From Clostridia bacterium (lineage in GTDB: Bacteria; Bacillota; Clostridia; Christensenellales; CAG-138), in assembly GCA_017451295.1 (NCBI GenBank), contig JAFSPW010000110.1, positions 40,213-104,212 of the forward strand: a DNA stretch of 64,000 bases, read 5' to 3'. Both the position numbers and the translations under genes were made by a program. Positions 12,803 through 44,286 of the stretch are shown one piece after another (the first letter of the stretch is position 1; each line of letters begins with the position of its first letter). The notes beneath the pieces are model-generated. The model saw only the letters and a program-made list of their open reading frames with translations, ran no database searches and was not told where the DNA came from.

Positions 12803-15304
12803 TTAGCGCTCCACCTGCTCCATGGTGTAGGCTTCGATGACATCCCCTTCGTGGATGTCGTTGAAGTTCTCAAACGAGATGCCGCACTCGTAGCCGGTGG
12901 CGACTTCCTTCACATCGTCCTTGAACCGGCGCAGGGAGGAAATCTTTCCGTCGTAGACCACAACGCCGTCCCGGACCACCCGGACCTGGGCGGAACGGGT
13001 GACCTTGCCGTCCTGGACATAGCCGCCGGCGATGGTGCCCACGCCGCTGATTTTGAAGGTGTTGCGGACGGAAATCCGACCCATATCCACCTCTTTGAAC
13101 ACGGGCTTAAACATGCCCTTCATGGCGGCCTGCACATCCTCGATGGCGTTATAGATGACCCGGTAGGTCCGCACGTCCACCTTCTCCTTCTCGGCCGTGG
13201 CGCGGGCGGCACCGTCGGGGCGGACATTGAAGCCGATGACGATGGCGTTGCTGGCGGAGGCGAACATAACGTCGCTCTCCGTGATGGCGCCAACGGCGGC
13301 ATGGATGCAGCGGACACGGACCTCGTCGTTGGAGAGCTTCTCCAAGGACTGCTTCACGGCCTCGGCAGAGCCCTGCACATCGGCCTTGATGATGATGTTC
13401 AAGTCCTTCAGCTCGCCTTCGGCCATCTGGTTGAACAATTCGTCCAAGGACACCTTCTGCTTGGCCATAATCTGGGCGGCCTTAATCTTGTCCTTGCGCT
13501 CCTCCGCCACCTGACGGGTCAGCTTATCGGCATCGGCCACGTTCATGACGTCGCCGGCTTCGGGAACCTCGTTGAAGCCCAAAATCTCCACGGGCGTGGA
13601 GGGACCGGCACTGTTGACACTGCGGCCCTTATCGTCAATCATGGCCCGGATACGGCCATAGGCGGTTCCGGCGATGATAGTGTCTCCTTTTTTTAGCGTG
13701 CCATTCTGCACAAGAACGGTGGCGAGGGGACCCCGGGACTTGTCGAGCTTGGCTTCGATGACCGTGCCCTTAGCAAGGCGATTGGGGTTGGCCTTGAGCT
13801 CGAGCACATCGGCCTGAAGCAGCACCATCTCAAGCAGCGTGTCCAGATTCTGGTTCTTCTTGGCAGAGACGGGCACCACGATGGTATCGCCGCCCCAGTC
13901 CTCAGAGACCAGGCCGTATTCCGTCAGCTGCTGGGTGACCCGGTCCGGATCGGCGCCGGGCTTATCAATCTTGTTCACCGCCACCACGATGGGCACGTTG
14001 GCGGCTTTGGCATGGTTGATGGCTTCCACGGTCTGGGGCATGATGCCGTCATCCGCCGCCACCACCAGAATGACGATATCCGTCACCTGCGCGCCCCGGG
14101 CACGCATGGAGGTGAACGCCTCGTGACCCGGCGTGTCGATGAAGGTGATTTGGCGGCCCTTGCACATGACGGTATAGGCACCGATGTGCTGGGTGATGCC
14201 GCCGGCTTCCCCTGCCGTCACGTTGCTGTGGCGGAAGGCATCCAGCAGGGAGGTCTTGCCGTGGTCCACGTGACCCATGATGGTGACCACCGGGGGACGG
14301 GGCTGGAGCTGGTCCTCCCGATCCTCCTCCTCGGCATTGTCGGTGAGCACGTCCTCATAGGACTTGGCCAGCTGCTGCTCCAGGGTGATGTTATAATCGC
14401 TGGCAATCAGTTCGCAGGTATCAAAGTCAATCTCCTGGTTGATGGTGGCCATGATGCCCAGCAGGAACAGCTTCTTGATGATTTCGGCGGCGGGCTTGCC
14501 AATCTTCTCGGACAGATCCTTGACCGTGATGGTCTCGGAGGTAATCACCGCATGCTCAATCACGACCGGTGCGGGCTTGACCGCCTCCTGCTTGTTGCTC
14601 TTGCCCTTGCGGCGGTTGCCCATGGAACCGTCTTCGTCCCACACCACCGAGGGTCCGTTCTCTCGCTGCATAGCTTTCTTGTTCTTAGCTTTCTTATCCT
14701 TATCGTAGGAATTGTTGTTCTTCTTGTTCTGATCCCGAGATCCCGCACTGGGATTGATGACCACAGCCCGGTTGCCGGAAGGAGCGCTCTGGGGCCGCTC
14801 CGGCCGAGGAGGACGCTGGTCCTTGCGGGGGGCGTTTGCACCCGTTTGCCCGGCGGGCTGGGTGGGACGGGGACCGTTATTGCGGCGCTCGGCCTGGGGT
14901 GCGGCGGGACGGGGCCGACTGGGCTCCGCTACATAAGCCGGTTTCTCCTCGGGCTTGGGCGCAGGGGCAACAGGGGGTTCCGGGGCAGCCGGCGGCTCCG
15001 GTGCGGCGGCGGGGGTTTCTGCCGCTGCTACAGAATCGGCCTGCCGGGCCTCGTTCACCTGGTCCTGAGCATCCACCACATAGGCGTTGGTTTCCCCGGA
15101 TTCGAGGAATTTTTTCAGCCGTTCAGCCTTCTGCTTTTCGGCCTGCTCCCGCTGCTGCCGCTGCTCCTTCTCCAGGAGCTTCGCTTCTGCGCCGCGAGCC
15201 TCGCTCAACAGGGCGGCCACCGCCTCCCGGTTGGCCTTAATCTTTTCCAGCAGACCTTGCGCCTGGGTCTTTACGGTTTTTGCAGTATCAAAATAGTTTG
15301 CCAT
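12803..15304 (-). CDS. infB: Translation initiation factor IF-2
   Basis: 833 aa. GTPase core [27 protein letters not shown]. Low-complexity Pro/Ala/Lys N-terminal region. Confidence 0.97.
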
Positions 15305-15308
15305 GTAT

Positions 15309-15623
15309 TCAACCCCCTACTTGCGTTTGGGATGCCAAAGCATCCTGTATCATTCGTGCAAATCCTGCGTCCGTCACCGCCATGACGATGTGGCTTGGCT
15401 TGCCGATGGCCTTGCCCACCTCGGGGACAAGAACCAAGGGCACGCTGTGACGAGTACACAGGGCGGCGTATCTATCCTTTGTGGCCTCGGCCGCCGCCTG
15501 CTCTAACAGCATCAGTTTTGCCTTGCCGCTTTCTACGGCACGACTGGCGGCAAAGTCGCCGCTTTGGCACTTCCCGGCCCGGCGGCATAGGCCCAGGCTG
15601 TTAAAAAGTCGAGTCTGCTCCAC
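15309..15623 (-). CDS. ylxQ: L7Ae-family RNA-binding protein YlxQ
   Basis: LGLCRRAGK...[12 protein letters not shown] pattern of the L7Ae/YlxQ family between ylxR and infB. Track start 15629 is TTG abutting the RBS; GTG 15623 lies 6 nt after AGAGGTGA. Confidence 0.7.
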
Positions 15624-15861
15624 AGGCAATCACCTCTTTGAGGCTCGCCTTGGTCTCTTCCGACAAAGGCTGCTCCAATGCGCGCTCCAAGGCCCGGGTT
15701 TTGAAAGCCTTCATCAAGCAGGCCTCACTTTTGCACAGATACGCACCCCGACCGTTTTTCCGGCCCGTTTCATCGGCAACGATTTGGCCTTCCTGCGTGC
15801 GTACCACCCGAACGAGCTCCTTCTTGGGCTTCATTTCCCGACAGGCCACGCACATACGCAT
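15601..15861 (-). CDS. ylxR: YlxR/RnpM (DUF448) RNA-binding protein
   Basis: [19 protein letters not shown]...GRGAYLC is the DUF448 signature. Start is ATG 15861 or TTG 15879, just after the nusA stop at 15881. Confidence 0.8.
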
Positions 15862-15880
15862 GGGAACTTTTTTTACCAAT

Positions 15881-16939
15881 TTATGCCTCCGAATCGGCCA
15901 TGGCGGACTCCGCCTGGCTCTGGCTCTTGATGTCAATCTTCCAGCCGGTGAGCTTTGCGGCCAGGCGTGCGTTCTGCCCCTCCTTGCCGATAGCCAAGGA
16001 CAGCTGGTTGTCGGGAACGATGACCCGGGCGGCCTTCTCCTCCTCGTTGATATAGACCATGAGGACCTTCGCCGGGCTCAGGGCCTTGGCGATATAGATG
16101 GCGTTGTCCGGATCCCACTCGATGATGTCGATCTTCTCGTTGCCAATCTCGTTGCAGATGCGCTCCACGCGAGCGCCCCGCTGCCCCACGCAGGAGCCCA
16201 CGGCATCCACCTGGGGATCCGTGGAGAACACGGCAATCTTGGTGCGGAAGCCTGCCTCCCGGGCGATGGACTTAATCTGCACCACGCCGGACATGATTTC
16301 GGGCACTTCCATTTCAAACAGGCGCTTGATAAGGCCCGGATGGGTACGGGACACCAGCACCTGGGGACCGCGGCTGTCCTTGCGGACCTCCAGCACATAG
16401 ACCTTGACCCGCTGATTGTTCTCGTAGGTCTCGCCGGGAATCATTTCGTTGGCGGTCAAGATACCGTCGGTCTTGCCCAATTCCACATAGGCGTTGCCCT
16501 TCTCCACCCGCTGAACGATGGCGGTGAGAATCTCGTTCTCCTTCTCGGCATACTCCTCATAGATGTTGCCCCGCTCCGCTTCCCGAATGCGCTGGACCAC
16601 CACCTGCTTGGCGGTTTGGGCGGCGATGCGGCCGAACTTGCGGGTGTCGGCTTCCTCCTCCACCACATCGCCCACCTCGTAGAGGGAGTTAAGCTTCTTG
16701 GCCTGCTCCAAAGACATCTCCACCGTGGGGTCGTTGACCTCCTCCACCACGGTCTTGCTGGCATAGATGTGGATTTCGCCGGTGCTGCCGTCGATTTCCG
16801 CCCGCATGTTGCCCTGGGAATTGTAGTTGCGCTTATAGGCGAAGATTAAAGCGGATTCCACCGTGGACAAAAGCACGTCCTTGTTGATGCCTTTTTCCTT
16901 TTCCAGTGCGTTGAGAGCCTCGATAAAATCTAAGTTCAT
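15881..16939 (-). CDS. nusA: Transcription termination/antitermination factor NusA
   Basis: 352 aa. N-terminal domain, S1 ([14 protein letters not shown]..) and two KH domains ([20 protein letters not shown]). Confidence 0.95.
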
Positions 16940-36003: not shown

Positions 36004-36729
36004 CTATTCCTCCATTTCAAAGAAGGCGCGAAGGGTGTTGGTCTCTGCCTCGGTGATGGTGACGATGTGCTTGCTCCCCGCCATGCCGTAGCTGAGTTTC
36101 ACCCGCTCCCCGGGGAGAATCTGGCGGCGATACACCACCGTCATATGGGAAAAGGCATCCATATCCACCGCTGCGGGCAGAGCTTCCAGCGCTAAGTCCA
36201 GATAGGCCACGTTGTGCACATGGTGGTTGCAGTCAATCATGGCTCGGGTGATGGAGGTCTGCAAGGTCCATACGGGCTCGAACGCTGCCGGCTCCCGAGG
36301 GAAGGCAAAATCCGGGTAGTTCTGCCGCTCCGGCTCCGGTTTGTAGGGAGCCATTATCTCCGGGGTGATGCGCTGCACATGGGTGTTGTTCTCGTCCAGC
36401 ACCATCCAGGCGGAGGTACCCTTGGCGCACAGCCGCCCTGCTTCATCATGCAGCAGAAAATCCCGGCCCGTCTGCAGGCGGTTGGCCTGCTGGGCCCAGG
36501 TGATGCCATGGACAGTCTCGGTCATCTTGGGCCGATGCAGCACTTCCAGGTGCCAGCCCACCACGACCCAGGAAAGGTGGCACTTGTCCCTGTCCCCCAG
36601 GCCCTGGCCGATGCGGGTGCCATGCAAACAGGCCAGGTTGCTCATCATGGTGATATAGCCCTTGTTGCTCAGGCCCAGGTCCGTGCCCGTGTCCTCCAAG
36701 CGCACAAAAAAGTCTTGTTCTACCTGCAT
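36004..36729 (-). CDS. Acyl-ACP thioesterase
   Basis: 241 aa double hot-dog. WVVVGWHLEVLHRP, TSAWMVLD and DCNHHVHNVAYLD motifs resemble the FatA/FatB-type bacterial acyl-ACP thioesterase. Confidence 0.75.
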   Translation of the reverse strand: MQVEQDFFVRLEDTGTDLGLSNKGYITMMSNLACLHGTRIGQGLGDRDKCHLSWVVVGWHLEVLHRPKMTETVHGITWAQQANRLQTGRDFLLHDEAGRLCAKGTSAWMVLDENNTHVQRITPEIMAPYKPEPERQNYPDFAFPREPAAFEPVWTLQTSITRAMIDCNHHVHNVAYLDLALEALPAAVDMDAFSHMTVVYRRQILPGERVKLSYGMAGSKHIVTITEAETNTLRAFFEMEE

Positions 36730-36744
36730 ATTTTCCTCATCTTT

Positions 36745-37069
36745 CTACTTGATTATCTGTAGATTCGCATCCGTCATCAGCCGTTCCAGAGAGTAGCAGA
36801 ACAGCAGTTCCTGTGCCCCATACTCCTTGCAAACCTCCGCCACGCTGCCCCGATAGTAGCGCGGATCCACCATGACGATACGCCGATAGCTGGGAACCAG
36901 CAGGGGCGTCCCAAAAAAGGCTCGCATACTTGAACACGAACAGCAGCAGCAGGTTGACCGTCACGCTGATGAGCAGAAAGAGCTTTTTGCGTTTGGGCCA
37001 TCTGTCCATGGCAAAAAGGCGAATAAAAAGGTAAGGGATGAAAAAACCATAGGCGCCAGCCTTTATTCA
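36745..37069 (-). pseudogene. Deletion scar: internal MBOAT (AlgI/DltB-like) fragment fused out of frame to the C-terminal tail of a DHHW-like protein
   Basis: Frame A reads GAYGFFIPYLFIRLFAMDRWPKRKKLFLLISVTVNLLLLFVFKYASLF, an MBOAT region normally about 60-110 aa into the protein, preceded by an in-frame stop. The +1 frame continues PLLVPSYRRIVMVDPRYYRGSVAEVCKEYGAQELLFCYSLERLMTDANL, which resembles DHHW-family C-termini. Confidence 0.45.
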
Positions 37070-37170
37070 AAAATCTACTTATTCTATCATGGCCCCCCTG
37101 GTTTTTCAACCACCATTCGCCCTGTGCTATCCACGCAAAAAGCCACCTGAGCATTAGGTAGTATACCGCC

Positions 37171-37275
37171 CAAAGCACCGGGAATGCGGCCCCAGTACAC
37201 GGGCCACTTCAAATCGCGAAAGCCCGCCCCGGGAATGAGCACAATTGGATATTGAGTTTGGCAGGAGTAAGGCAA
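37171..37275 (-). pseudogene. Orphan 5' fragment of the lipase gene (left copy of a 100-nt direct repeat)
   Basis: 37171-37270 is 98/100 identical to 41453-41552. Encodes MPYSCQTQYPIVLIPGAGFRDLKWPVYWGRIPGAL versus MQDYSCQTQYPIVLIHGAGFRDLKWPVYWGRIPGAL of the intact gene, then diverges and stops. Confidence 0.8.
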
Positions 37276-37366
37276 GTGGCTAAAATTGCCATTTACCGCC
37301 GTAGAAGAAGCAGTATCTTCATAGTTTGTTTTGGTAAGTGATCAACATGAGCGCTTACCAGATTTC

Positions 37367-37406
37367 TGGCAAGGGCAAAGGATAATTTCCATTTTTGCCG
37401 TTGCCA
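37367..37406 (+). promoter_or_regulatory. 13-bp-arm inverted repeat (operator-like) overlapping the -35 of the hipA-like gene
   Basis: TGGCAAGGGCAAA (37367-37379) pairs with TTTGCCGTTGCCA (37394-37406), 12/13 complementary, 14-nt spacer. Confidence 0.6.
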
Positions 37407-37429
37407 AAGCGGATAAAACGGGGTATAAT
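37401..37429 (+). promoter_or_regulatory. Sigma-A-type promoter of the hipA-like gene
   Basis: TTGCCA (37401-37406), 17-nt spacer, TATAAT (37424-37429). RBS GAAAGGGGG lies 7 nt before ATG 37457. Confidence 0.55.
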
Positions 37430-37456
37430 AACGGTGGTAAGAAAGGGGGTTAATTC

Positions 37457-38959
37457 ATGCCTGACCGAATTACGATACAGAAGATAGCGGAATTAACCGA
37501 AAAGATCGGGAAACTCCCCAAAGGCTATATCTCCAAAAAGACCGTGAACGGTAACGTTTATTTTTATCATCAGTGGTCGGAAGGCGGCGTAAAGAAAAGC
37601 AAGTATCTCCGCGATGAGGAGATCGCCGGGCTAACCGATCAGATTGAACTAAGAAAAAAGTTGCAAAAAGAACTGGCTGAAATCAAGGCGGGCAACGTTG
37701 CCTCGCCCAAAGTTCAGAACGGTTTTTTGAAGTGTACCCTGATGCATAAATGCACACCCGTAGTCGAACTCAATCTCGATAACGAAACCGGTTTTATTCA
37801 GAAAATCGGTGCTGTTTTTGCGCCCGAGCATCTGCCCGTTGGCGTCGGTATGAAAAAGGGCGCCGTCGATCGCGCGGCACTGAACGCTTGGTGGACGGAA
37901 AGATCCATCCCCGCCAGCCGCTCCGGTGTGCGCGAGGCAATGGAAACGCTGCAGATCACCGATACAAAAATGCTGTTGATTCGCTGCTTCGGTCTCTCCC
38001 TTTCAGACCAGTATTGGATCCGCCCCGAAAACTCCGAACTTACCTGGGAAAAGATCAACTTTTTTGAAAACGAGTTTTCCGATGATATCGGCGACGTACT
38101 GTTCGGCGCGGATAAGAAACCGGATCCGCTCAATTTCTCTTCGCCCGATAATACCTCCGACGGCAATCTGAAAAAGCGATGGAAAATCATTGACGGCAAG
38201 CGTTGCCTTGTCAAAGGCGGCTCCAACCCCTACCGTCAGCAACCGTTGAACGAAGTCGTCGCCTCAAAGATCATGCGTCGGCTGAATATTCCCCACGTGC
38301 CGTACACCGTGACCTGGAACAAGGGCGCTCCGTACAGCGTGTGCGAAGATTTTGTCAGCGAAGATACCGAGCTTGTCCCGGCGTGGCGGATCATCCAGAC
38401 CAGGAAGCAGCCAAACAGCAAGTCGATGTATCAGCATTTCGTTGACTGCGCGGACGCACTCGGGATCCCGAATGTCAAAGAGTTTTTGGATCAGATGATT
38501 GTGCTCGATTATATCATTGCGAACGAAGATAGACATTTGAACAACTTCGGCGCAATTCGTAACGCCGAAACGCTTGAATGGCTCTGCATGGCGCCGATCT
38601 ATGATAGCGGCTCCTCACTTGGATATGACAAGAGCGTACCGATGATGCGGGACGGGTCGGAGGTAGTCTGCAAACCGTTCAAAAAGCACCACGAAGAACA
38701 GTTAAAACTTGTTTCATCTTTTGACTGGATCGACTTCTCCGCGCTTTCCGGCGTCGGTGAAATGATTACGGAAATCCTCTCCGACGAAAACGCAAAGGAT
38801 TATATGGAAGAAAACCGAATTCGCGTTATTGCTGAGCTGACAGAGCGTCGGATCAAAAATCTGCAAACTCTTGCCAACTCAAAGACGCACAAGCAGACCA
38901 TCACCACCGATGACGAAGTCGGCAAAAACATTGCCGCATCGTATGAAGATAAGAAATAA
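37457..38959 (+). CDS. HipA-homologous Ser/Thr kinase with about 90-aa N-terminal extension and about 100-aa C-terminal extension (monocistronic)
   Basis: Catalytic-loop motif IIANEDRHLNNFG and Mg-binding MAPIYDSGSS, with KRWKIIDGKRCLVKGGS in the ATP-binding region. No HTH/HipB-like ORF on either side. Confidence 0.8.
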   Translation: MPDRITIQKIAELTEKIGKLPKGYISKKTVNGNVYFYHQWSEGGVKKSKYLRDEEIAGLTDQIELRKKLQKELAEIKAGNVASPKVQNGFLKCTLMHKCTPVVELNLDNETGFIQKIGAVFAPEHLPVGVGMKKGAVDRAALNAWWTERSIPASRSGVREAMETLQITDTKMLLIRCFGLSLSDQYWIRPENSELTWEKINFFENEFSDDIGDVLFGADKKPDPLNFSSPDNTSDGNLKKRWKIIDGKRCLVKGGSNPYRQQPLNEVVASKIMRRLNIPHVPYTVTWNKGAPYSVCEDFVSEDTELVPAWRIIQTRKQPNSKSMYQHFVDCADALGIPNVKEFLDQMIVLDYIIANEDRHLNNFGAIRNAETLEWLCMAPIYDSGSSLGYDKSVPMMRDGSEVVCKPFKKHHEEQLKLVSSFDWIDFSALSGVGEMITEILSDENAKDYMEENRIRVIAELTERRIKNLQTLANSKTHKQTITTDDEVGKNIAASYEDKK

Positions 38960-39057
38960 TAGAACGGCAAGTAAGTGCTGCACGCTCGCAGACTTGAAAT
39001 TTTCTGTAGAGTCCAACAGGGTGATGGGCAGAGCCCGGACGATGTCGATGCGCTCGG

Positions 39058-39086
39058 TTGAAATAGATGCAGCCGTATGGTAGTAT
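39058..39086 (+). promoter_or_regulatory. Sigma-A-type promoter of the membrane/PBP gene
   Basis: TTGAAA (39058-39063), 17-nt spacer, TAGTAT (39081-39086). AAAGGAG RBS before ATG 39117. Confidence 0.5.
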
Positions 39087-39116
39087 ACAGAAAACAGATA
39101 GTAAAGGAGTGCTGCA

Positions 39117-40637
39117 ATGAAAAAATGGCTGCAGGTTTTGCTGATCTACTGGCTGATTCCCGCCGTGGGACTGATTCTCGCCGTGGGAGCGGTTGCACGG
39201 ATACCCCTGATTTTTCTGGACTTGAATGTAAATGAATGGTTTTTTGCCTGGTTTGTCCCCATTGTAACCGTATTTCTGTATGTTTTGCTGCGAAAAAAGC
39301 TGGACCTTCCCTTCGCCGCAAGGGTCAATGCCGGGATTCTGATTATACTTTCGGTATCCTTGGCGGTCATTCTGGCCATCACCTCCGGCAGCACAAATGG
39401 TAAAGAGTTCAGCATATTCACCATGCTGACGTTCCCGTTTCTGCTGCTGTCGCTGCTAATGATGGTGGCGGACAGTGCGCTTGCTTTGTTCGCCTGCATC
39501 TTTGCCACCTATGCAGCCGCTATGATTACCTGCCTCGTCCTGTCATCATGCAGTGGAGCTAACGAGCCGGACAGGGTGCAACAGCCACCTATCCGCCGTC
39601 TTTTGCCCTATTTGTTAACCGTTGCGGTGGTCCTGCTCTGCGGAACATTCAGCGTAAAGCAATACCAAAACCGTCCCGAGGTTCGGTATGCGGGGCATGG
39701 TTTCTCGTATATGCATGGATACTCCTCCACGGATTTCACCGATTACATGGTGTATAGTGAGAACTCGAAACTGGTCGAGCTGGACCATCAACCGAGCTTT
39801 ACCATTGAGGATGAGAAGGAGATGCCCGTCATGGACGGTGCGGAAGCGTGCTATCCGGTGTATGCGGCGGTGGCCAAGGCCGTATACCAGGGCATAGAGG
39901 GCATTGAGATGGCTGCATTGCAGACGGATTATGAATATACCAACGGCAAGATTGTCAGCTTCACCAACACCGTGCGTGGATTCTCCCGTCTGTTGGATAA
40001 AGAGGTGAATTTGCTTTTCGGCGCAACGCCCTCCAAAGAACAGCTTGCGGAGGCTGCAAAGAAAGGTATTGCCCTCACCATAACCCCCATCGGTCGGGAG
40101 GCCTTTGTGTTCTTTGTAGAGAAGGACAACCCCATCGACAATCTCACCAGCCAGCAAATCCGGGCCATCTATCACGGAGAGGTAACCAACTGGAAAGAGC
40201 TTGGTGGCAAAAATCAGGAAATCAGGGCCTTTCAACGCCCCCAAAATTCCGGCTCCCAGGCTGTTATGGAATACTTCATGGGGGATGTGTCCCTGATGGA
40301 GCCGGACAAGTATTTCGTCATCAGCGCAATGGGGGACACTATAGAGAAGGTGGCCCAATATGCCGACGAGGACGGCGCCATGGGCTATTCCTTCCGCTAT
40401 TTTGTGGAGGAATTGAATCAAGAGGATGGAGTGAAGATTCTCTGTGTTGACGGCGTTGCCCCGACCCTGGAGAACATCGAAAACGGACTATACCCGCTGA
40501 CGGTGGATCTTTGCCTCATCACCCGCGCCTATGACCCTAAAGCGAATGTGCAGAAGATGATTGATTTTATGCTCTCCCCGGACGGCCAGGAGATTATAAG
40601 AAGAACCGGCTATGCTGCTCTAAAGAGCAATGAATGA
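39117..40637 (+). CDS. Polytopic membrane protein fused to a PstS-like (PBP_like_2) periplasmic-binding domain
   Basis: About 6 hydrophobic helices in residues 1-180. The C-terminal domain has FTNTVRGF..., LTITPIGREAFVFFVEKDNPIDNLTSQQIRAIYHGEVTNWKELGG, QRPQNSGSQ and GLYPLT motifs typical of PstS-family binding proteins. Confidence 0.7.
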   Translation: MKKWLQVLLIYWLIPAVGLILAVGAVARIPLIFLDLNVNEWFFAWFVPIVTVFLYVLLRKKLDLPFAARVNAGILIILSVSLAVILAITSGSTNGKEFSIFTMLTFPFLLLSLLMMVADSALALFACIFATYAAAMITCLVLSSCSGANEPDRVQQPPIRRLLPYLLTVAVVLLCGTFSVKQYQNRPEVRYAGHGFSYMHGYSSTDFTDYMVYSENSKLVELDHQPSFTIEDEKEMPVMDGAEACYPVYAAVAKAVYQGIEGIEMAALQTDYEYTNGKIVSFTNTVRGFSRLLDKEVNLLFGATPSKEQLAEAAKKGIALTITPIGREAFVFFVEKDNPIDNLTSQQIRAIYHGEVTNWKELGGKNQEIRAFQRPQNSGSQAVMEYFMGDVSLMEPDKYFVISAMGDTIEKVAQYADEDGAMGYSFRYFVEELNQEDGVKILCVDGVAPTLENIENGLYPLTVDLCLITRAYDPKANVQKMIDFMLSPDGQEIIRRTGYAALKSNE

Positions 40638-40658
40638 ACGTTCCCCCAATCCACAAAT

Positions 40659-40720
40659 AACGGGACTGCACCAGCTGGTGCAGTCCCGTTGAAGCCACCT
40701 GATGCTCAGGTGGCTTTTTG
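40659..40720. terminator. Two back-to-back hairpins between convergent genes
   Basis: Hairpin 1 AACGGGACTGCACC-agct-GGTGCAGTCCCGTT (40659-40690) has its T-tract on the minus strand (TTATTTGTGG). Hairpin 2 AAGCCACCTGA-tgc-TCAGGTGGCTT (40692-40716) has TTTTG on the plus strand. Confidence 0.6.
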
Positions 40721-40738
40721 TCCCGATGATTTATGCTG

Positions 40739-41560
40739 TTAAAGTCCCCTGGTCTTCAAGCCACGGACGATGTCGATATATACATCCACAATGTCTGTCA
40801 CCCCCTGGCCGGAGCCCTTGGCAAGGGGGCGACGCCTGAGGTCGATGGCGTCCAGATGGGAGATACCCTGCCGGCCGTTGCCCCGTAAGACGGTGAAGTT
40901 ATCGCCCCACTTGGCGGAATCAAGGCTCACCAGGCCGTCGTTCTCCCCTTCGATACGGCTAAGGACGAAGTTAGCTGTGGACAGGTTGATATCCGAAAGG
41001 GGATGGGCCATAACACAGCCGAAGCTCTGATAGAACACCCCAGGCACATCCGGGTTGTTCTTGTTGAAGGCGGTCATATGCTCCGTGGTGAAGCCTTCGC
41101 ATACCGCCAGAAAGTCCGGCTGCTTATCCCCCACCAGGCGAATCCAGTTGTTCACCGCAAAGGCGGCCAAACTGAAAATGGCCTTGGGCGCTCGAAAAAG
41201 CTTGTCAAGAGTTTTAGAGCCATGATGTGGCGTGGCGATGGTGGTGATGCTGGCGATTTTATCCCCGGCCCCTAGGGAGGAGGCGGCCATGCGGGCCTCC
41301 AAGCCGCCCTTGCTGTGGGCAATCAGGTTTACCTTTTGGGCGCCGGTCTCGGCTAAAACGCTTTCAATACGGCGGACGATTTCCCGGGCGTTGGTTTCGG
41401 TGCTGGCCCAGCAATCCTGCAGGCCATAGTATATTGCCGCCCCTCTGAGCTGCAAAGCACCGGGAATGCGGCCCCAGTACACGGGCCACTTCAAATCCCG
41501 AAAGCCCGCCCCGTGAATGAGCACAATTGGATATTGAGTTTGGCAGGAGTAATCTTGCAT
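40739..41560 (-). CDS. Secreted-type triacylglycerol lipase / alpha-beta hydrolase
   Basis: PIVLIHGAG oxyanion region, AHSKGG (GxSxG-type nucleophile elbow), C-terminal HLDAID. Start taken as ATG 41560; ATG 41575 is an alternative. Confidence 0.75.
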   Translation of the reverse strand: MQDYSCQTQYPIVLIHGAGFRDLKWPVYWGRIPGALQLRGAAIYYGLQDCWASTETNAREIVRRIESVLAETGAQKVNLIAHSKGGLEARMAASSLGAGDKIASITTIATPHHGSKTLDKLFRAPKAIFSLAAFAVNNWIRLVGDKQPDFLAVCEGFTTEHMTAFNKNNPDVPGVFYQSFGCVMAHPLSDINLSTANFVLSRIEGENDGLVSLDSAKWGDNFTVLRGNGRQGISHLDAIDLRRRPLAKGSGQGVTDIVDVYIDIVRGLKTRGL

Positions 41561-41610
41561 TTCTATTTCTCTCATCGGGATGAGTATAGCATGATTCCCT
41601 GATAATGACA

Positions 41611-41639
41611 AGAAAAAGCCGCCCCTTGCGGAGCGGCTT
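41611..41639 (-). terminator. ppdK intrinsic terminator
   Basis: Minus-strand AGCCGCTCC-gcaa-GGGGCGGCT followed by TTTTCT, 17 nt after the ppdK stop. Confidence 0.6.
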
Positions 41640-41655
41640 GTGCGGGTTCGTTGGA

Positions 41656-44286
41656 TTAGTTCTGCTTGTCCTTGATCGCAGCCTGAGCGGCGGCCAGACG
41701 AGCGATGGGGACCCTGAAGGGGCTGCAGGAGACATAGGTCAGGCCCACCTTGTGGCAGAACTCCACGGAGGAGGGATCGCCGCCATGCTCGCCGCAGATG
41801 CCCAGCTTGATGTTGGGACGGGTCTGACGGCCCAGGTCGGCAGCCATCTTCACCAGCTTGCCCACGCCCTTCTGATCGAGGCGGGCGAAGGGATCGGACT
41901 CGTAAATCTTGCGATCATAGTAGTCCTTGAGGAACTTGCTCGCATCGTCACGGCTGAAGCCGAAGGTCATCTGGGTCAAGTCGTTGGTGCCGAAGGAGAA
42001 GAACTCGGCTTCCAGTGCGATTTCTTCGGCGGTGAGGGCCGCACGGGGAATCTCAATCATGGTGCCCACGTGGTAGTCAATCTGCTCGCCCCGCTCCTCC
42101 ATGACCTTGGCGGCGGTGTCCACAACCGTCTTCTTCACGAACGCGAGCTCCTTGACTTCGCCCACCAAGGGAATCATAATCTCGGGAACGATGTTCATGC
42201 CGGTTTCCTTGCGAACGTTGAGGGCAGCCTCGATAACCGCACGGGTCTGCATCTCGGCAATCTCGGGATAGGACACGGCGAGGCGGCAGCCACGGTGACC
42301 CATCATGGGGTTGAACTCGTGGAGGCTCTCCACGGTGGCCTTGAGCTGCTCGAAGGTGAGGCCCATTTCCTTGGCCAGATCCCGGATGTCCTCATCGGCG
42401 GTGGGCAGGAACTCATGGAGCGGGGGATCCAGGAACCGGATGGTTACCGGGCGGCCCTCCATGGCCTTGTACATGCCCTCGAAGTCACCGCGCTGCATGG
42501 GCAGGAGCTTGTCCAAAGCCTTGCGGCGGGCTTCCTCGGTGCTGGAGACGATCATCTCACGGACGGCGGGGATACGGTCGGGAGCAAAGAACATATGCTC
42601 GGTACGGCACAGGCCGATGCCCTCGGCGCCGAACTTCACGGCCACAGCGGCATCGTGGGGGTTATCGGCGTTGGTGCGGACCTGGAGGCGACGGGCGGCA
42701 TCCGCCCAGCCCATGAAGCGAGCGAACTCGTTGGCGATGGTGGCATCGGTGGTCTTGATGGCCTCGCCGTAGATGTTGCCGGTGGAGCCGTCGAGGCTGA
42801 TCCAGTCGCCCTCATGATAGGTGCGGCCGGCCAGGGTGAAGCACTTGTTGTCCTCGTCCATGGTGATTTCACCGCAGCCGGAGACGCAGCAGGTGCCCAT
42901 GCCGCGGGCCACAACGGCGGCGTGGCTGGTCATGCCGCCACGGACGGTGAGGATGCCCTGGGAGTGGTTCATGCCTTCGATATCTTCGGGGCTGGTCTCC
43001 AAGCGGACCAGGACCACCTTATGACCGGCCTTGTCCCAGTCGATAGCATCCTGGGCGTTGAACACAATCTGGCCGCAGGCGGCGCCGGGAGAGGCGGGCA
43101 GGGCGTGGGCCACGGGCGTGGCAGCCTTCAGGGCGGCGGCATCGAACTGGGGATGGAGCAAAGCATCCAGCTGCTTGGGGTCAACCATGAGCAGGGCTTC
43201 GTCCACGGTGATGAGACCTTCATCTACGAGGTCGCAGGCAATCTTCAAAGCGGCCTTGGCGGTACGCTTGCCGTTACGGGTCTGGAGCATGTAGAGCTTC
43301 TTATCCTCGATGGTGAACTCCATGTCCTGCATATCGTGATAGTGGGCTTCGAGCTTTCCGCAGATGTCCACAAACTGCTCGTACGCTTCGGGAATGACTT
43401 CCTTGAGCTGGTCGATGGTTTGCGGCGTGCGGACGCCGGCCACCACGTCTTCGCCCTGGGCGTTCATCAAAAACTCGCCAAACAGGTGCTTTTCGCCGGT
43501 AGCGGGGTCACGGGTGAAGGCAACGCCCGTGCCGGAATCATCGCCAGTGTTGCCAAAGACCATCATCTGCACGTTGACGGCAGTGCCCCAATCGCCGGGG
43601 ATGTCGTTCATGCGGCGATAGTAGATGGCCCGGGGGTTGTTCCAGGAACGGAACACGGCCTTGATGGCGCCCAGCAGCTGTTCCTTGGGATCGGAGGGGA
43701 AGTCGGCGCCAATCTTGGCTTTATATTCGGCCTTGAACATCTGGGCCAGCTTCTTCAAATCATCGGCATCGAGCTCGGTATCCAGCTTCACGCCCTTCTC
43801 GGCCTTCATCTGGTCGATGAGCTCTTCAAAATACTTCTTGCCCACTTCCATGACCACATCGGAATACATCTGGATGAAGCGGCGATAGGAATCGTAAGCA
43901 AAGCGGGGGTTGCCGGTCTTGCGGGCGAAGGCTTCCACCACGGTGTCGTTAAGACCCAGGTTCAAAATGGTGTCCATCATGCCAGGCATGGAAGCACGGG
44001 CGCCGGAGCGAACGGAGACCAGCAGGGGGTTATTCAAATCCCCGAACTTCTTGCCGCTCATCTGCTGGAGCTTTTCGACATACTGGTCAATTTCGGCCAG
44101 GATGTCATCGTTAATCTTTTCGCCGTCGTCATAGAACTTGATGCAGGCTTCGGTGGTGATGGTGAAGCCCTGGGGCACGGGCATGCCCAGATTAGTCATC
44201 TCAGCAAGGTTGGCTCCTTTGCCGCCCAAGAGGTTGCGCATGTCCTTGGAGCCTTCGGAGAACAGGTATACATATTTGTGTGCCAA
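41656..44286 (-). CDS. ppdK: Pyruvate, phosphate dikinase
   Basis: About 876 aa. ATP-grasp N-terminus (GGKGANLAEM), phospho-His domain (GGMTSHAAVVARGMG), PEP-utilising TIM barrel (CGEHGGDP). Start re-set to TTG 44286, 7 nt after GGGAGGA, giving LAHKYVYLF. Confidence 0.95.
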   Translation of the reverse strand: MAHKYVYLFSEGSKDMRNLLGGKGANLAEMTNLGMPVPQGFTITTEACIKFYDDGEKINDDILAEIDQYVEKLQQMSGKKFGDLNNPLLVSVRSGARASMPGMMDTILNLGLNDTVVEAFARKTGNPRFAYDSYRRFIQMYSDVVMEVGKKYFEELIDQMKAEKGVKLDTELDADDLKKLAQMFKAEYKAKIGADFPSDPKEQLLGAIKAVFRSWNNPRAIYYRRMNDIPGDWGTAVNVQMMVFGNTGDDSGTGVAFTRDPATGEKHLFGEFLMNAQGEDVVAGVRTPQTIDQLKEVIPEAYEQFVDICGKLEAHYHDMQDMEFTIEDKKLYMLQTRNGKRTAKAALKIACDLVDEGLITVDEALLMVDPKQLDALLHPQFDAAALKAATPVAHALPASPGAACGQIVFNAQDAIDWDKAGHKVVLVRLETSPEDIEGMNHSQGILTVRGGMTSHAAVVARGMGTCCVSGCGEITMDEDNKCFTLAGRTYHEGDWISLDGSTGNIYGEAIKTTDATIANEFARFMGWADAARRLQVRTNADNPHDAAVAVKFGAEGIGLCRTEHMFFAPDRIPAVREMIVSSTEEARRKALDKLLPMQRGDFEGMYKAMEGRPVTIRFLDPPLHEFLPTADEDIRDLAKEMGLTFEQLKATVESLHEFNPMMGHRGCRLAVSYPEIAEMQTRAVIEAALNVRKETGMNIVPEIMIPLVGEVKELAFVKKTVVDTAAKVMEERGEQIDYHVGTMIEIPRAALTAEEIALEAEFFSFGTNDLTQMTFGFSRDDASKFLKDYYDRKIYESDPFARLDQKGVGKLVKMAADLGRQTRPNIKLGICGEHGGDPSSVEFCHKVGLTYVSCSPFRVPIARLAAAQAAIKDKQN

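Follow-up and report, generated by a model that had tools for sequence, protein, structure and literature searches.

The 64-kb stretch of DNA analysed here (the window) comes from a Clostridia bacterium (contig JAFSPW010000110.1) and carries, between ppdK and an acyl-ACP thioesterase gene, an AT-richer segment that contains two plus-strand genes, one encoding a HipA-like kinase and the other a PstS-like protein, as well as a promoterless copy of the 5' part of the neighboring lipase gene. A first-pass annotation had described this segment as horizontally acquired two-gene cargo bracketed by a direct repeat of the lipase 5' end. Coordinates are positions in the window, and L-numbers (e.g., L084) denote loci or contigs fetched for comparison. 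Judged from this comparison, the additional DNA is composite, consisting of a HipA-like cassette, a PstS-like gene with its terminator hairpin (hp2), and gene debris.

The lipase gene, its truncated copy and the terminators

The two repeat copies, 37171-37270 and 41453-41552, are identical at 98 of 100 positions at an offset of 4282 nucleotides (nt), with the mismatches at 37216 and 37232 that had been listed before (blastn E 3e-47). The right copy corresponds to nt 9-108 of an intact minus-strand gene (40739-41560, ATG at 41560), as had been proposed, which encodes a lipase-like alpha/beta hydrolase of 273 amino acids (aa) matching Pfam Abhydrolase_1, PGAP1 and Lipase_2. On the minus strand this gene is preceded by the ppdK terminator (41616-41639) and then by the lipase promoter (41611-41583; TTGTCA-17-TG-TATACT), a junction (41583-41639) that is common to a sister clade. 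This clade came to light in lipase-query scans of a genome collection and of metagenomes; its lipases share 80-82% aa identity with that of the window, and PpdK shares 95%. The homology of this terminator and promoter in the window and in the sister clade places the right copy at the ancestral ppdK junction. The whole ppdK-lipase intergenic region is conserved between them, and by these measures of sequence the intact lipase is the resident gene, orthologous to that of the sister species. Its GC content at third codon positions (GC3) is 0.70, and its offset of -0.10 from the flanks equals that in the sister species; the notion that the intact lipase shares the composition of the supposed island was rejected on this value. 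A sliding comparison of its identity to the sister-clade lipases gave no step, and hence no crossover point within the gene.

The left copy, also on the minus strand, is a lipase pseudogene stub (nt 9-108) that has neither a start codon nor the lipase promoter, in keeping with its earlier description as an orphan. One of its two mismatches turns the HG of the LIHGAG motif into PG (H-to-P), and the other is synonymous. A degenerate continuation of the stub is discernible at 37160-37170 (minus strand), where GGCGG-TATACT(A) resembles lipase nt ~120-134 after deletions of 11 and 3 nt; the score of this alignment was equalled by 28 of 5000 shuffles. Relative to the PstS-like gene and the thioesterase gene, the stub occupies the site at which L084, a sister-clade contig, carries an intact lipase.

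This structure is present in at least six independent metagenome assemblies or samples. In several independent samples, and with at least two assemblers, individual contigs run through both repeats and show these two mismatches again, and the same architecture is found in all nine contigs with the exact thioesterase and all seven with the exact lipase. Look-ups of the exact HipA, thioesterase and lipase proteins returned only this architecture, with no empty-site or deletion variant within the species. The suspicion that the left repeat might be an assembly artefact, which the first-pass annotation had named as grounds for refutation, is thereby answered in favor of a real structure. In sample ERZ28653709 the locus is distributed over a pair of contigs (L026 and L080) that share 55 nt, 37405-37459; the break coincides with the 5' edge of the HipA cassette and lies away from the 100-nt repeat, and it may hint at strain heterogeneity at the edge of the cassette in this sample. 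Contig L078 (sample ERZ28653690) equals the window across GerA-thioesterase-HipA-PstS-lipase, and its 149 differences (7%) are confined to ppdK (41656-43729), reflecting either a chimeric assembly across this conserved gene or a recombinant ppdK allele.

Two hairpins lie between the convergent PstS-like and lipase genes. The first, hp2 (40659-40690), is a perfect 16+16 palindrome and a conserved terminator 3' of the PstS-like gene. The second, T (40692-40720, plus strand), is a hairpin with a T-run that, together with an A-run for the opposite strand, makes up a near-palindromic bidirectional terminator; including the runs it reads CAAAAAGCCACCTGA-loop-TCAGGTGGCTTTTTG, a near-perfect 33-nt palindrome. 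T and hp2 form a very stable tandem terminator (-47 kcal/mol, z -8.4). A partial copy of T, which we designate T' (37136-37159, minus strand), directly follows the stub on the minus strand and comprises the 3' half of T and the T-run. It no longer folds into a stable hairpin, and its orientation is correct for a minus-strand gene.

The inverted match of 19/19 that had been noted between T' and T is reproduced as the core of a longer match of 23/24 (37136-37159 against 40697-40720). The further claim that T' is oppositely oriented stands insofar as the inverted fit is better than the direct one (23/24 versus about 16/20), but what distinguishes inverted from direct copies of T is chiefly the loop of 3 nt (TGC or GCA), along with the run that survives. 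Because the hairpin with its runs is a near-palindrome, the opposite orientation rests mainly on that loop, and the case for a genuine inversion is weaker than the match at first suggests. An inverted segment with T' and T as its ends was also considered and rejected, as undoing the inversion yields a less sensible gene order in which the PstS-like gene faces away from ppdK, unlike in the outgroups. No further copy of T (up to 4 mismatches) was found in the window or in any fetched locus, which rules out T as a repeated element of the repetitive extragenic palindrome (REP) or att type.

Extent and origins of the additional DNA

Collinearity with the window extends over roughly 20 kb in about ten loci of the sister clade, in the order YbeY, Cdd, Era, RecO, PpdK, lipase, thioesterase, GerAA/AB/AC, GntR, PBP1 and DnaJ; these loci lack the extra segment. 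The thioesterase gene (36004-36729, minus strand), which directly follows the lipase in the sister species, is the left anchor of the variable segment. In the sister clade the lipase stop and the thioesterase start are only 35-40 nt apart, including the ribosome-binding site, so that the extra DNA of the window is 36730-40738 (4.0 kb), from lipase stop to thioesterase start. It is thus not an island bracketed by the repeats (37171-41552), as had been supposed, since the right repeat lies inside the resident lipase and outside the extra DNA. Nor did the empty site predicted earlier, with the order thioesterase - MBOAT/DHHW - lipase - ppdK, appear in the relatives, which have thioesterase - lipase - ppdK. 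A 6-nt motif, GCATAA, common to the lipase 3' flank of the window and the lipase-thioesterase spacer of the sister clade was judged too short and was not used.

Several other elements of the first-pass annotation held up. Compared with its nearest relatives the window carries the segment as accessory DNA, since the collinear sister-clade loci do not have it, yet two sister-clade contigs, L084 and L085, carry a PstS-like gene at this site. It is AT-richer than its surroundings, with a GC content of 0.44-0.53 across 37000-40700 versus about 0.57-0.66 in the flanks in the GC profile of the window, and its two plus-strand genes (37457-38959 and 39117-40637) each have a promoter-like site of their own. 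The stated lack of mobility genes was borne out within the scope searched: there is no tRNA in the entire 64-kb window, and none of the genes called within +/-10 kb encodes an integrase or transposase domain. Rfam gave no matches over 36600-41800. What did not survive is the view of the two genes as a single cargo, as close homologues of the HipA-like gene, found on six other contigs in three distinct contexts, never adjoin a PstS-like gene, and homologues of the PstS-like gene never adjoin a HipA-like gene. Horizontal acquisition, likewise claimed for both, is upheld for the HipA-like gene, which is mobile and occurs in unrelated contexts, and not for the PstS-like gene, which is probably resident; in a test of composition and incongruence the former was atypical and the latter was not.

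The HipA-like cassette (37395-38963, plus strand) consists of a promoter-like site (37401-37429; TTGCCA-17-TATAAT) and a coding sequence (37457-38959) for a 500-aa protein with DUF6788 and HipA_C domains. Homologues with 92-93% and 82% aa identity occur in entirely different contexts (L067-L072; hosts of 40-53% GC, and of 40-50% GC for those with 92-93%), none of them with a PstS-like neighbor. In nucleotide sequence the cassette is about 86% identical to copies in unrelated genomes, and the identity to the contigs L067-L072 (78-87%) is limited to the stretch from 37395/37401 through 38946-38963, that is, from the -35 box to the stop codon; in L067-L070 it runs to 4 nt past the stop codon. This bounded homology, in unrelated contexts and in hosts that differ in GC, marks the HipA-like cassette as the only clearly mobile part of the locus, transferred horizontally as a single unit. 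It includes no recombinase and no repeats or flanking sequence specific to it.

The HipA_C domain (PF07804) scores 39.6 bits against a cutoff of 30.5, and the NEDRHLNN catalytic-loop motif and the IYDSG motif following it are readable in the translation. The only match among PDB sequences is CtkA, and in PADLOC only the kinase core (residues 235-393) matches PDC-M03A, of the candidate defence system PDC-M03 (69 bits); the PstS-like neighbor has no PADLOC match. Neither a HipB-like antitoxin gene nor a small upstream open reading frame adjoins the HipA-like gene in the window or in L067-L072. The protein family has more than 6,400 matches, and the locus draws attention to a widespread family of solo HipA-like kinases without an antitoxin partner. 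A full-length homologue with 68% identity is encoded at 14683-16158 of MT835596.1, a 26-kb contig from human faeces deposited in a phage collection as 'Bacteriophage sp.', and weaker homologues are found on plasmids of Clostridium, Selenomonas and Campylobacter. Phage contigs of the MT835596.1 type and such plasmids are possible vehicles for the cassette.

The PstS-like gene with its own promoter (39058-40637, plus strand) comprises a promoter-like site at 39058-39086 (TTGAAA-17-TG-TAGTAT), whose -10 region CGTATGGTAGTAT is conserved in L084, and a coding sequence (39117-40637) for a 506-aa protein in which an N-terminal multi-pass membrane region is fused to a PBP_like_2 domain. In two outgroup loci (PpdK 73%), the homologous gene (66% identical in L075, 65-72% in L076) is directly convergent on PpdK-RecO-Era-Cdd-YbeY, a block that is also present in the window, and the hairpin after the PstS-like gene of the window (hp2) is orthologous to the hairpin GGACTGCA...TGCAGTCC of these outgroups. 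In L084 and L085 the PstS-like gene (69-71%) is divergent from the adjoining lipase-thioesterase pair or, in L085, from a lipase relic and the thioesterase gene. L084 falls within the sister clade (lipase 85-87.5% and thioesterase 81-85% identical to other members), to which the window is an outgroup. The identities of the PstS-like proteins (66-71%) are in line with those of neighboring, vertically inherited genes, and the GC content of the gene is 3-9 points below that of its neighbors in the outgroup genomes too. Its position beside ppdK or lipase-thioesterase, the orthologous terminator, and the matching identities and GC offset in relatives argue that the PstS-like gene is probably resident in this neighborhood and was lost by most sister-clade genomes. 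Composition by itself is no sufficient ground for counting it among horizontally acquired genes.

No pstC, pstA or pstB permease or ATPase gene adjoins the PstS-like gene in the window or in L073-L076. Within its first transmembrane segment is an in-register 18-nt tandem duplication (39153-39188; CTGATTCCCGCCGTGGGA / CTGATTCTCGCCGTGGGA, 17/18) encoding LIPAVG-LILAVG. Upstream of its promoter a 14-nt sequence, CGGACGATGTCGAT (39036-39049), exactly matches the 3' end of the lipase gene in direct orientation (40764-40777), and GATGTCGAT is also found upstream of the PstS-like gene in L084; the 14-nt match is probably either chance or a regulatory motif. In L084 (2968-3638) and L085 (1899-2527) a toxin-antitoxin pair, PIN (VapC) and MazE-like (VapB), is convergent on the PstS-like gene and takes the slot held in the window by the hp2/T terminators and the lipase, so that the accessory genes differ by lineage. 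In L084, furthermore, a degenerate relic of the 3' half of the ppdK terminator (CCCGGGGCGACTGCTTCC) lies upstream of the lipase promoter (~1290-1330), between the divergent lipase and PstS-like genes. As a terminator has no function there, the L084 arrangement is derived.

The remainder of the extra DNA is debris and filler. A 124-nt filler (37271-37394) separates the stub from the HipA cassette; nothing homologous to it turned up among the fetched loci, and Rfam gave no match. On the plus strand it folds better than shuffled sequences (z -3.4), with an 11-bp stem at ~37331-37360. Neither this filler nor the spacer between the HipA-like and PstS-like genes contains a significant relic of the lipase promoter or ppdK terminator, or homology to the intergenic regions of L084 and L085. 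Beyond the stub and T', toward the thioesterase gene, the minus strand holds a promoter-like site (37081-37109; TTGAAA-17-TG-TAGAAT) upstream of two out-of-frame N-terminal fragments, MVFSSLTFLFAFLPW and DRWPKRKKLFLLISVTVNLLLLFVFKYASLF, which lie at 36908-37050, were read from a three-frame translation of the minus strand between the thioesterase gene and the stub, and are assigned by the N-terminal motifs of the family to a membrane-bound O-acyltransferase (MBOAT) gene; the short fragments have no Pfam match. They are followed by the C-terminal 55 codons of a DHHW/AlgX-like gene (36748-36912, minus strand), which end just before the thioesterase ribosome-binding site. Several proteins have C-termini that are 72-78% identical to this tail, among them the full-length, 373-aa P0312, which matches Pfam DHHW (PF14286) and ALGX. 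The promoter-like site at 37081-37109 is probably the current promoter of the thioesterase-gerA genes.

Minus-strand open reading frames of 62, 133 and 90 aa (37087-37275, 36777-37178 and 36737-37009) cross the stub, the terminator relic and the MBOAT/DHHW debris, and public assemblies call a 60-aa gene at 36745-36927. Very likely none of the four is a gene, and in annotation 36737-37275 should be treated as gene debris.

Proposed history of the locus and its alternatives

The arrangements described above may be accounted for if the region from ppdK to thioesterase-gerA is a rearrangement hotspot in this uncultured rumen Clostridia clade and the window represents one decayed state of it, a reading to which we give an even chance. 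The presence of the right lipase copy at the ppdK junction, together with a stub on the thioesterase side at the position of the L084 lipase, points to a past state in which two lipase copies flanked other DNA (A-H-X-H-B). The ancestor would have had two direct lipase copies flanking the PstS-like gene, in the order ppdK-lipase-T-hp2-PstS(reverse)-lipase-T-...-thioesterase. Such a state could have arisen by tandem duplication and insertion between the copies, or by Campbell-type integration of a circle with lipase homology. The common sister-clade type would have lost the PstS-like gene through homologous recombination of one lipase copy with the other; in L084 the left lipase copy would have survived. 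In the window it would be the right copy that survived, the left being inactivated in two steps. First, its promoter and first 8 nt would have been replaced on arrival of the HipA cassette and the 124-nt filler; then an illegitimate deletion would have joined lipase nt ~134 to the middle of the terminator. The MBOAT and DHHW genes that once preceded the thioesterase gene would have decayed too, leaving the promoter that now probably drives the latter. The proposal that recombination left its marks in the lipase stub and in the palindromic terminator is supported. L085 retains (92-375) the lipase promoter and roughly the first ten codons and then runs straight into the thioesterase; this independent deletion confirms that the lipase has been lost repeatedly at this locus.

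No part of the locus acts as a mobile element today. The earlier suggestion that the cargo could still be lost by recombination between the 100-nt repeats does not agree with the coordinates: such an event would remove 4282 bp, including lipase nt 109-822 and the PstS-like and HipA-like genes. By deleting the body of the lipase it would leave promoter-stub-T', a lipase knockout and not the empty site of the relatives, and no such variant was seen in any assembly.

A number of points weigh against the history outlined above. The two-copy ancestor is deduced, no fetched genome having two intact lipases, and L084 ends 0.8 kb beyond the PstS-like gene with its ppdK side outside the contig. Upstream of the stub no relic of the lipase promoter or the ppdK terminator is detectable. 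If the duplication preceded the split from the sister clade (~20% nt divergence), the 98% identity of a 100-nt pseudogene calls for an additional assumption, gene conversion or late truncation; the identity would reflect a duplication of recent date, or else concerted evolution that went on until the copy was recently truncated. A direct duplication also needs a flip of the T' loop, given the better inverted fit. MBOAT-DHHW is found at this site in no relative. The locus of the closest DHHW homologue, L086, lies elsewhere and has the order MBOAT?-DHHW-peptidase M20, not beside a thioesterase gene; an ancestral lipase-MBOAT-DHHW-thioesterase operon, which had been considered, finds no support in this context. 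Finally, the thioesterase search of the collections returned no relative between 63% and 100% identity, which leaves the order and timing of the proposed events tentative; the genome and metagenome scans likewise returned no lipase relative above 82%. The two-copy state may have arisen by tandem duplication with insertion, by Campbell-type integration from a relative or by recent local duplication.

The most serious competitor is a recent local event, which we regard as possible but rather unlikely. Starting from an ancestral ppdK-lipase-T-hp2-PstS-HipA-...-thioesterase order, a 4282-bp tandem duplication (from 41552 back to 37271) would have been followed by deletion of nearly all of the duplicate; or else short filler copied from the nearby lipase 5' end and, inverted, from T would have patched a double-strand break that fell between the HipA-like gene and the remains of MBOAT. 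The 98% identity favors such a recent origin, and the stub and T' then appear as short adjoining patches, one from each end of the lipase unit, whose small junction indels are typical of illegitimate joining; filler copying would also explain the inverted T' (23/24) without a loop flip. On the other hand, a local event makes it a coincidence that the stub lies at the position of the L084 lipase, upstream of and divergent from the PstS-like gene and with the thioesterase gene downstream, and duplication followed by deletion needs two large events with nearly coincident endpoints. Templated filler of 100 nt or more is not known as a well-documented outcome in bacteria, which counts against the patch. 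Slightly less probable still is that the HipA-like and PstS-like genes came as one acquired island, by a single crossover of a 4282-bp lipase-bearing circle with the resident lipase, the left copy being trimmed later. Campbell-type integration does yield an A-H-X-H-B order whose second copy lacks a promoter, most sister-clade genomes do not have the segment, its GC is lower, and the HipA-like gene is mobile. Against this stand the separate homology blocks of two genes that never co-occur elsewhere, the position of the PstS-like gene beside ppdK or lipase/thioesterase in relatives at identities of vertical descent, its low GC as a family trait, and the absence of a recombinase, tRNA or att-like site. 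Moreover, the donor would need to have carried lipase-T-hp2-PstS and so to have been a close relative, which reduces the island to a variant of the hotspot history.

The remaining explanations are much less probable. A doubtful one is that the HipA-like gene moves among unrelated gut and rumen Clostridia as a promoter-to-stop cassette by an unknown mode of capture, or, in a related form, that the lipase repeats make the PstS-like gene, and now the HipA-like gene, recurrently excisable. If true, the former would mean that an unknown mechanism is at work, which in the window landed on a decaying lipase copy, and the latter would explain filled and empty arrangements within one clade. That the inverted repeats of 24 nt (37136-37159 and 40697-40720, 23/24) end a 3.6-kb non-autonomous element made up of stub, HipA and PstS and mobilised in trans, in the manner of a composite transposon, is very improbable: although such repeats do flank the segment, their similarity in inverted orientation is expected for half of a palindromic terminator hairpin, the flanks (...ATCCACG and TCCCGAT...) contain no target-site duplication, there is no transposase among the genes called within +/-10 kb and no other copy in the window or the fetched loci, and the boundaries of the segment differ from those of the empty site. 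An assembly artefact, with a mis-join or a collapsed repeat behind the left copy, might be suspected from the metagenome-assembled source and from the split of the locus over L026 and L080, but the recurrence of both copies across independent samples and assemblers effectively refutes it, and the single contig break lies away from the repeat.

Relation to known systems

The hotspot history aside, the locus is of some practical consequence as a caution, in that a convincing island signature, composed of GC content, repeat, promoters and absence from relatives, proved to be a mosaic with one gene that is demonstrably foreign. Classical genomic islands, which are linked to tRNAs and carry an integrase and att repeats, resemble the locus in their absence from nearest relatives, lower GC and direct repeat. 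They differ in that the window has no integrase or tRNA, its repeat comes from the interior of a gene and fails to delimit the extra DNA, and of the two genes just one shows evidence of transfer. The locus fails defining tests of a classical island, a transposon and a HipBA module, respectively those of recombinase, tRNA and boundaries, those of target-site duplication, transposase and further copies, and that of the antitoxin.

The HipA-like kinase shares with HipBA toxin-antitoxin systems, and with solo HipA kinases such as CtkA of H. pylori, a HipA_C domain above the Pfam cutoff. It departs from HipBA in having no HipB-like gene in the window or in the six homologous contigs and in that an N-terminal DUF6788 replaces the N-terminal domains of HipA. 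The N-terminally extended YjjJ/HipH of E. coli is likewise a solo HipA-like kinase. The PstS-like protein resembles the PstS of Pst ABC transporters in its C-terminal half, which matches PBP_like_2 and, weakly, TIGR02136; the latter score (114.6 bits versus a cutoff of 206.6) is far below the family cutoff, and the protein differs further in its fusion to a membrane region of roughly 200 aa and in the lack of adjacent pstCAB genes.

The products of Campbell-type integration, as in insertion-duplication mutagenesis with suicide plasmids, have the order promoter and full gene, insert, 5'-truncated copy, and original downstream DNA. The window shows the same topology, its first lipase copy being complete with the native promoter and its left copy, on the thioesterase side, starting at lipase nt 9. 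It differs from such products in having no vector, replication or recombinase genes and in that the PstS-like gene of the insert is native in relatives; no donor circle was observed. The closest likeness is to gene-duplication remnants, with which the locus shares a promoterless 5' fragment that points the same way as its intact parent gene, 4.3 kb away. In common with duplication remnants and with repeat-mediated gene loss, the intervening genes are present or absent among relatives and the illegitimate junction carries indels; in contrast to repeat-mediated loss, the homology in the window extends over only ~100 nt, and recombination would now destroy a functional lipase. The locus thus fits a well-known class, that of duplication remnants and debris at a variable chromosomal site joined by one acquired orphan gene, and it provides a small natural example of how, in a single clade, duplicated copies can mediate both the acquisition and the loss of the genes between them.

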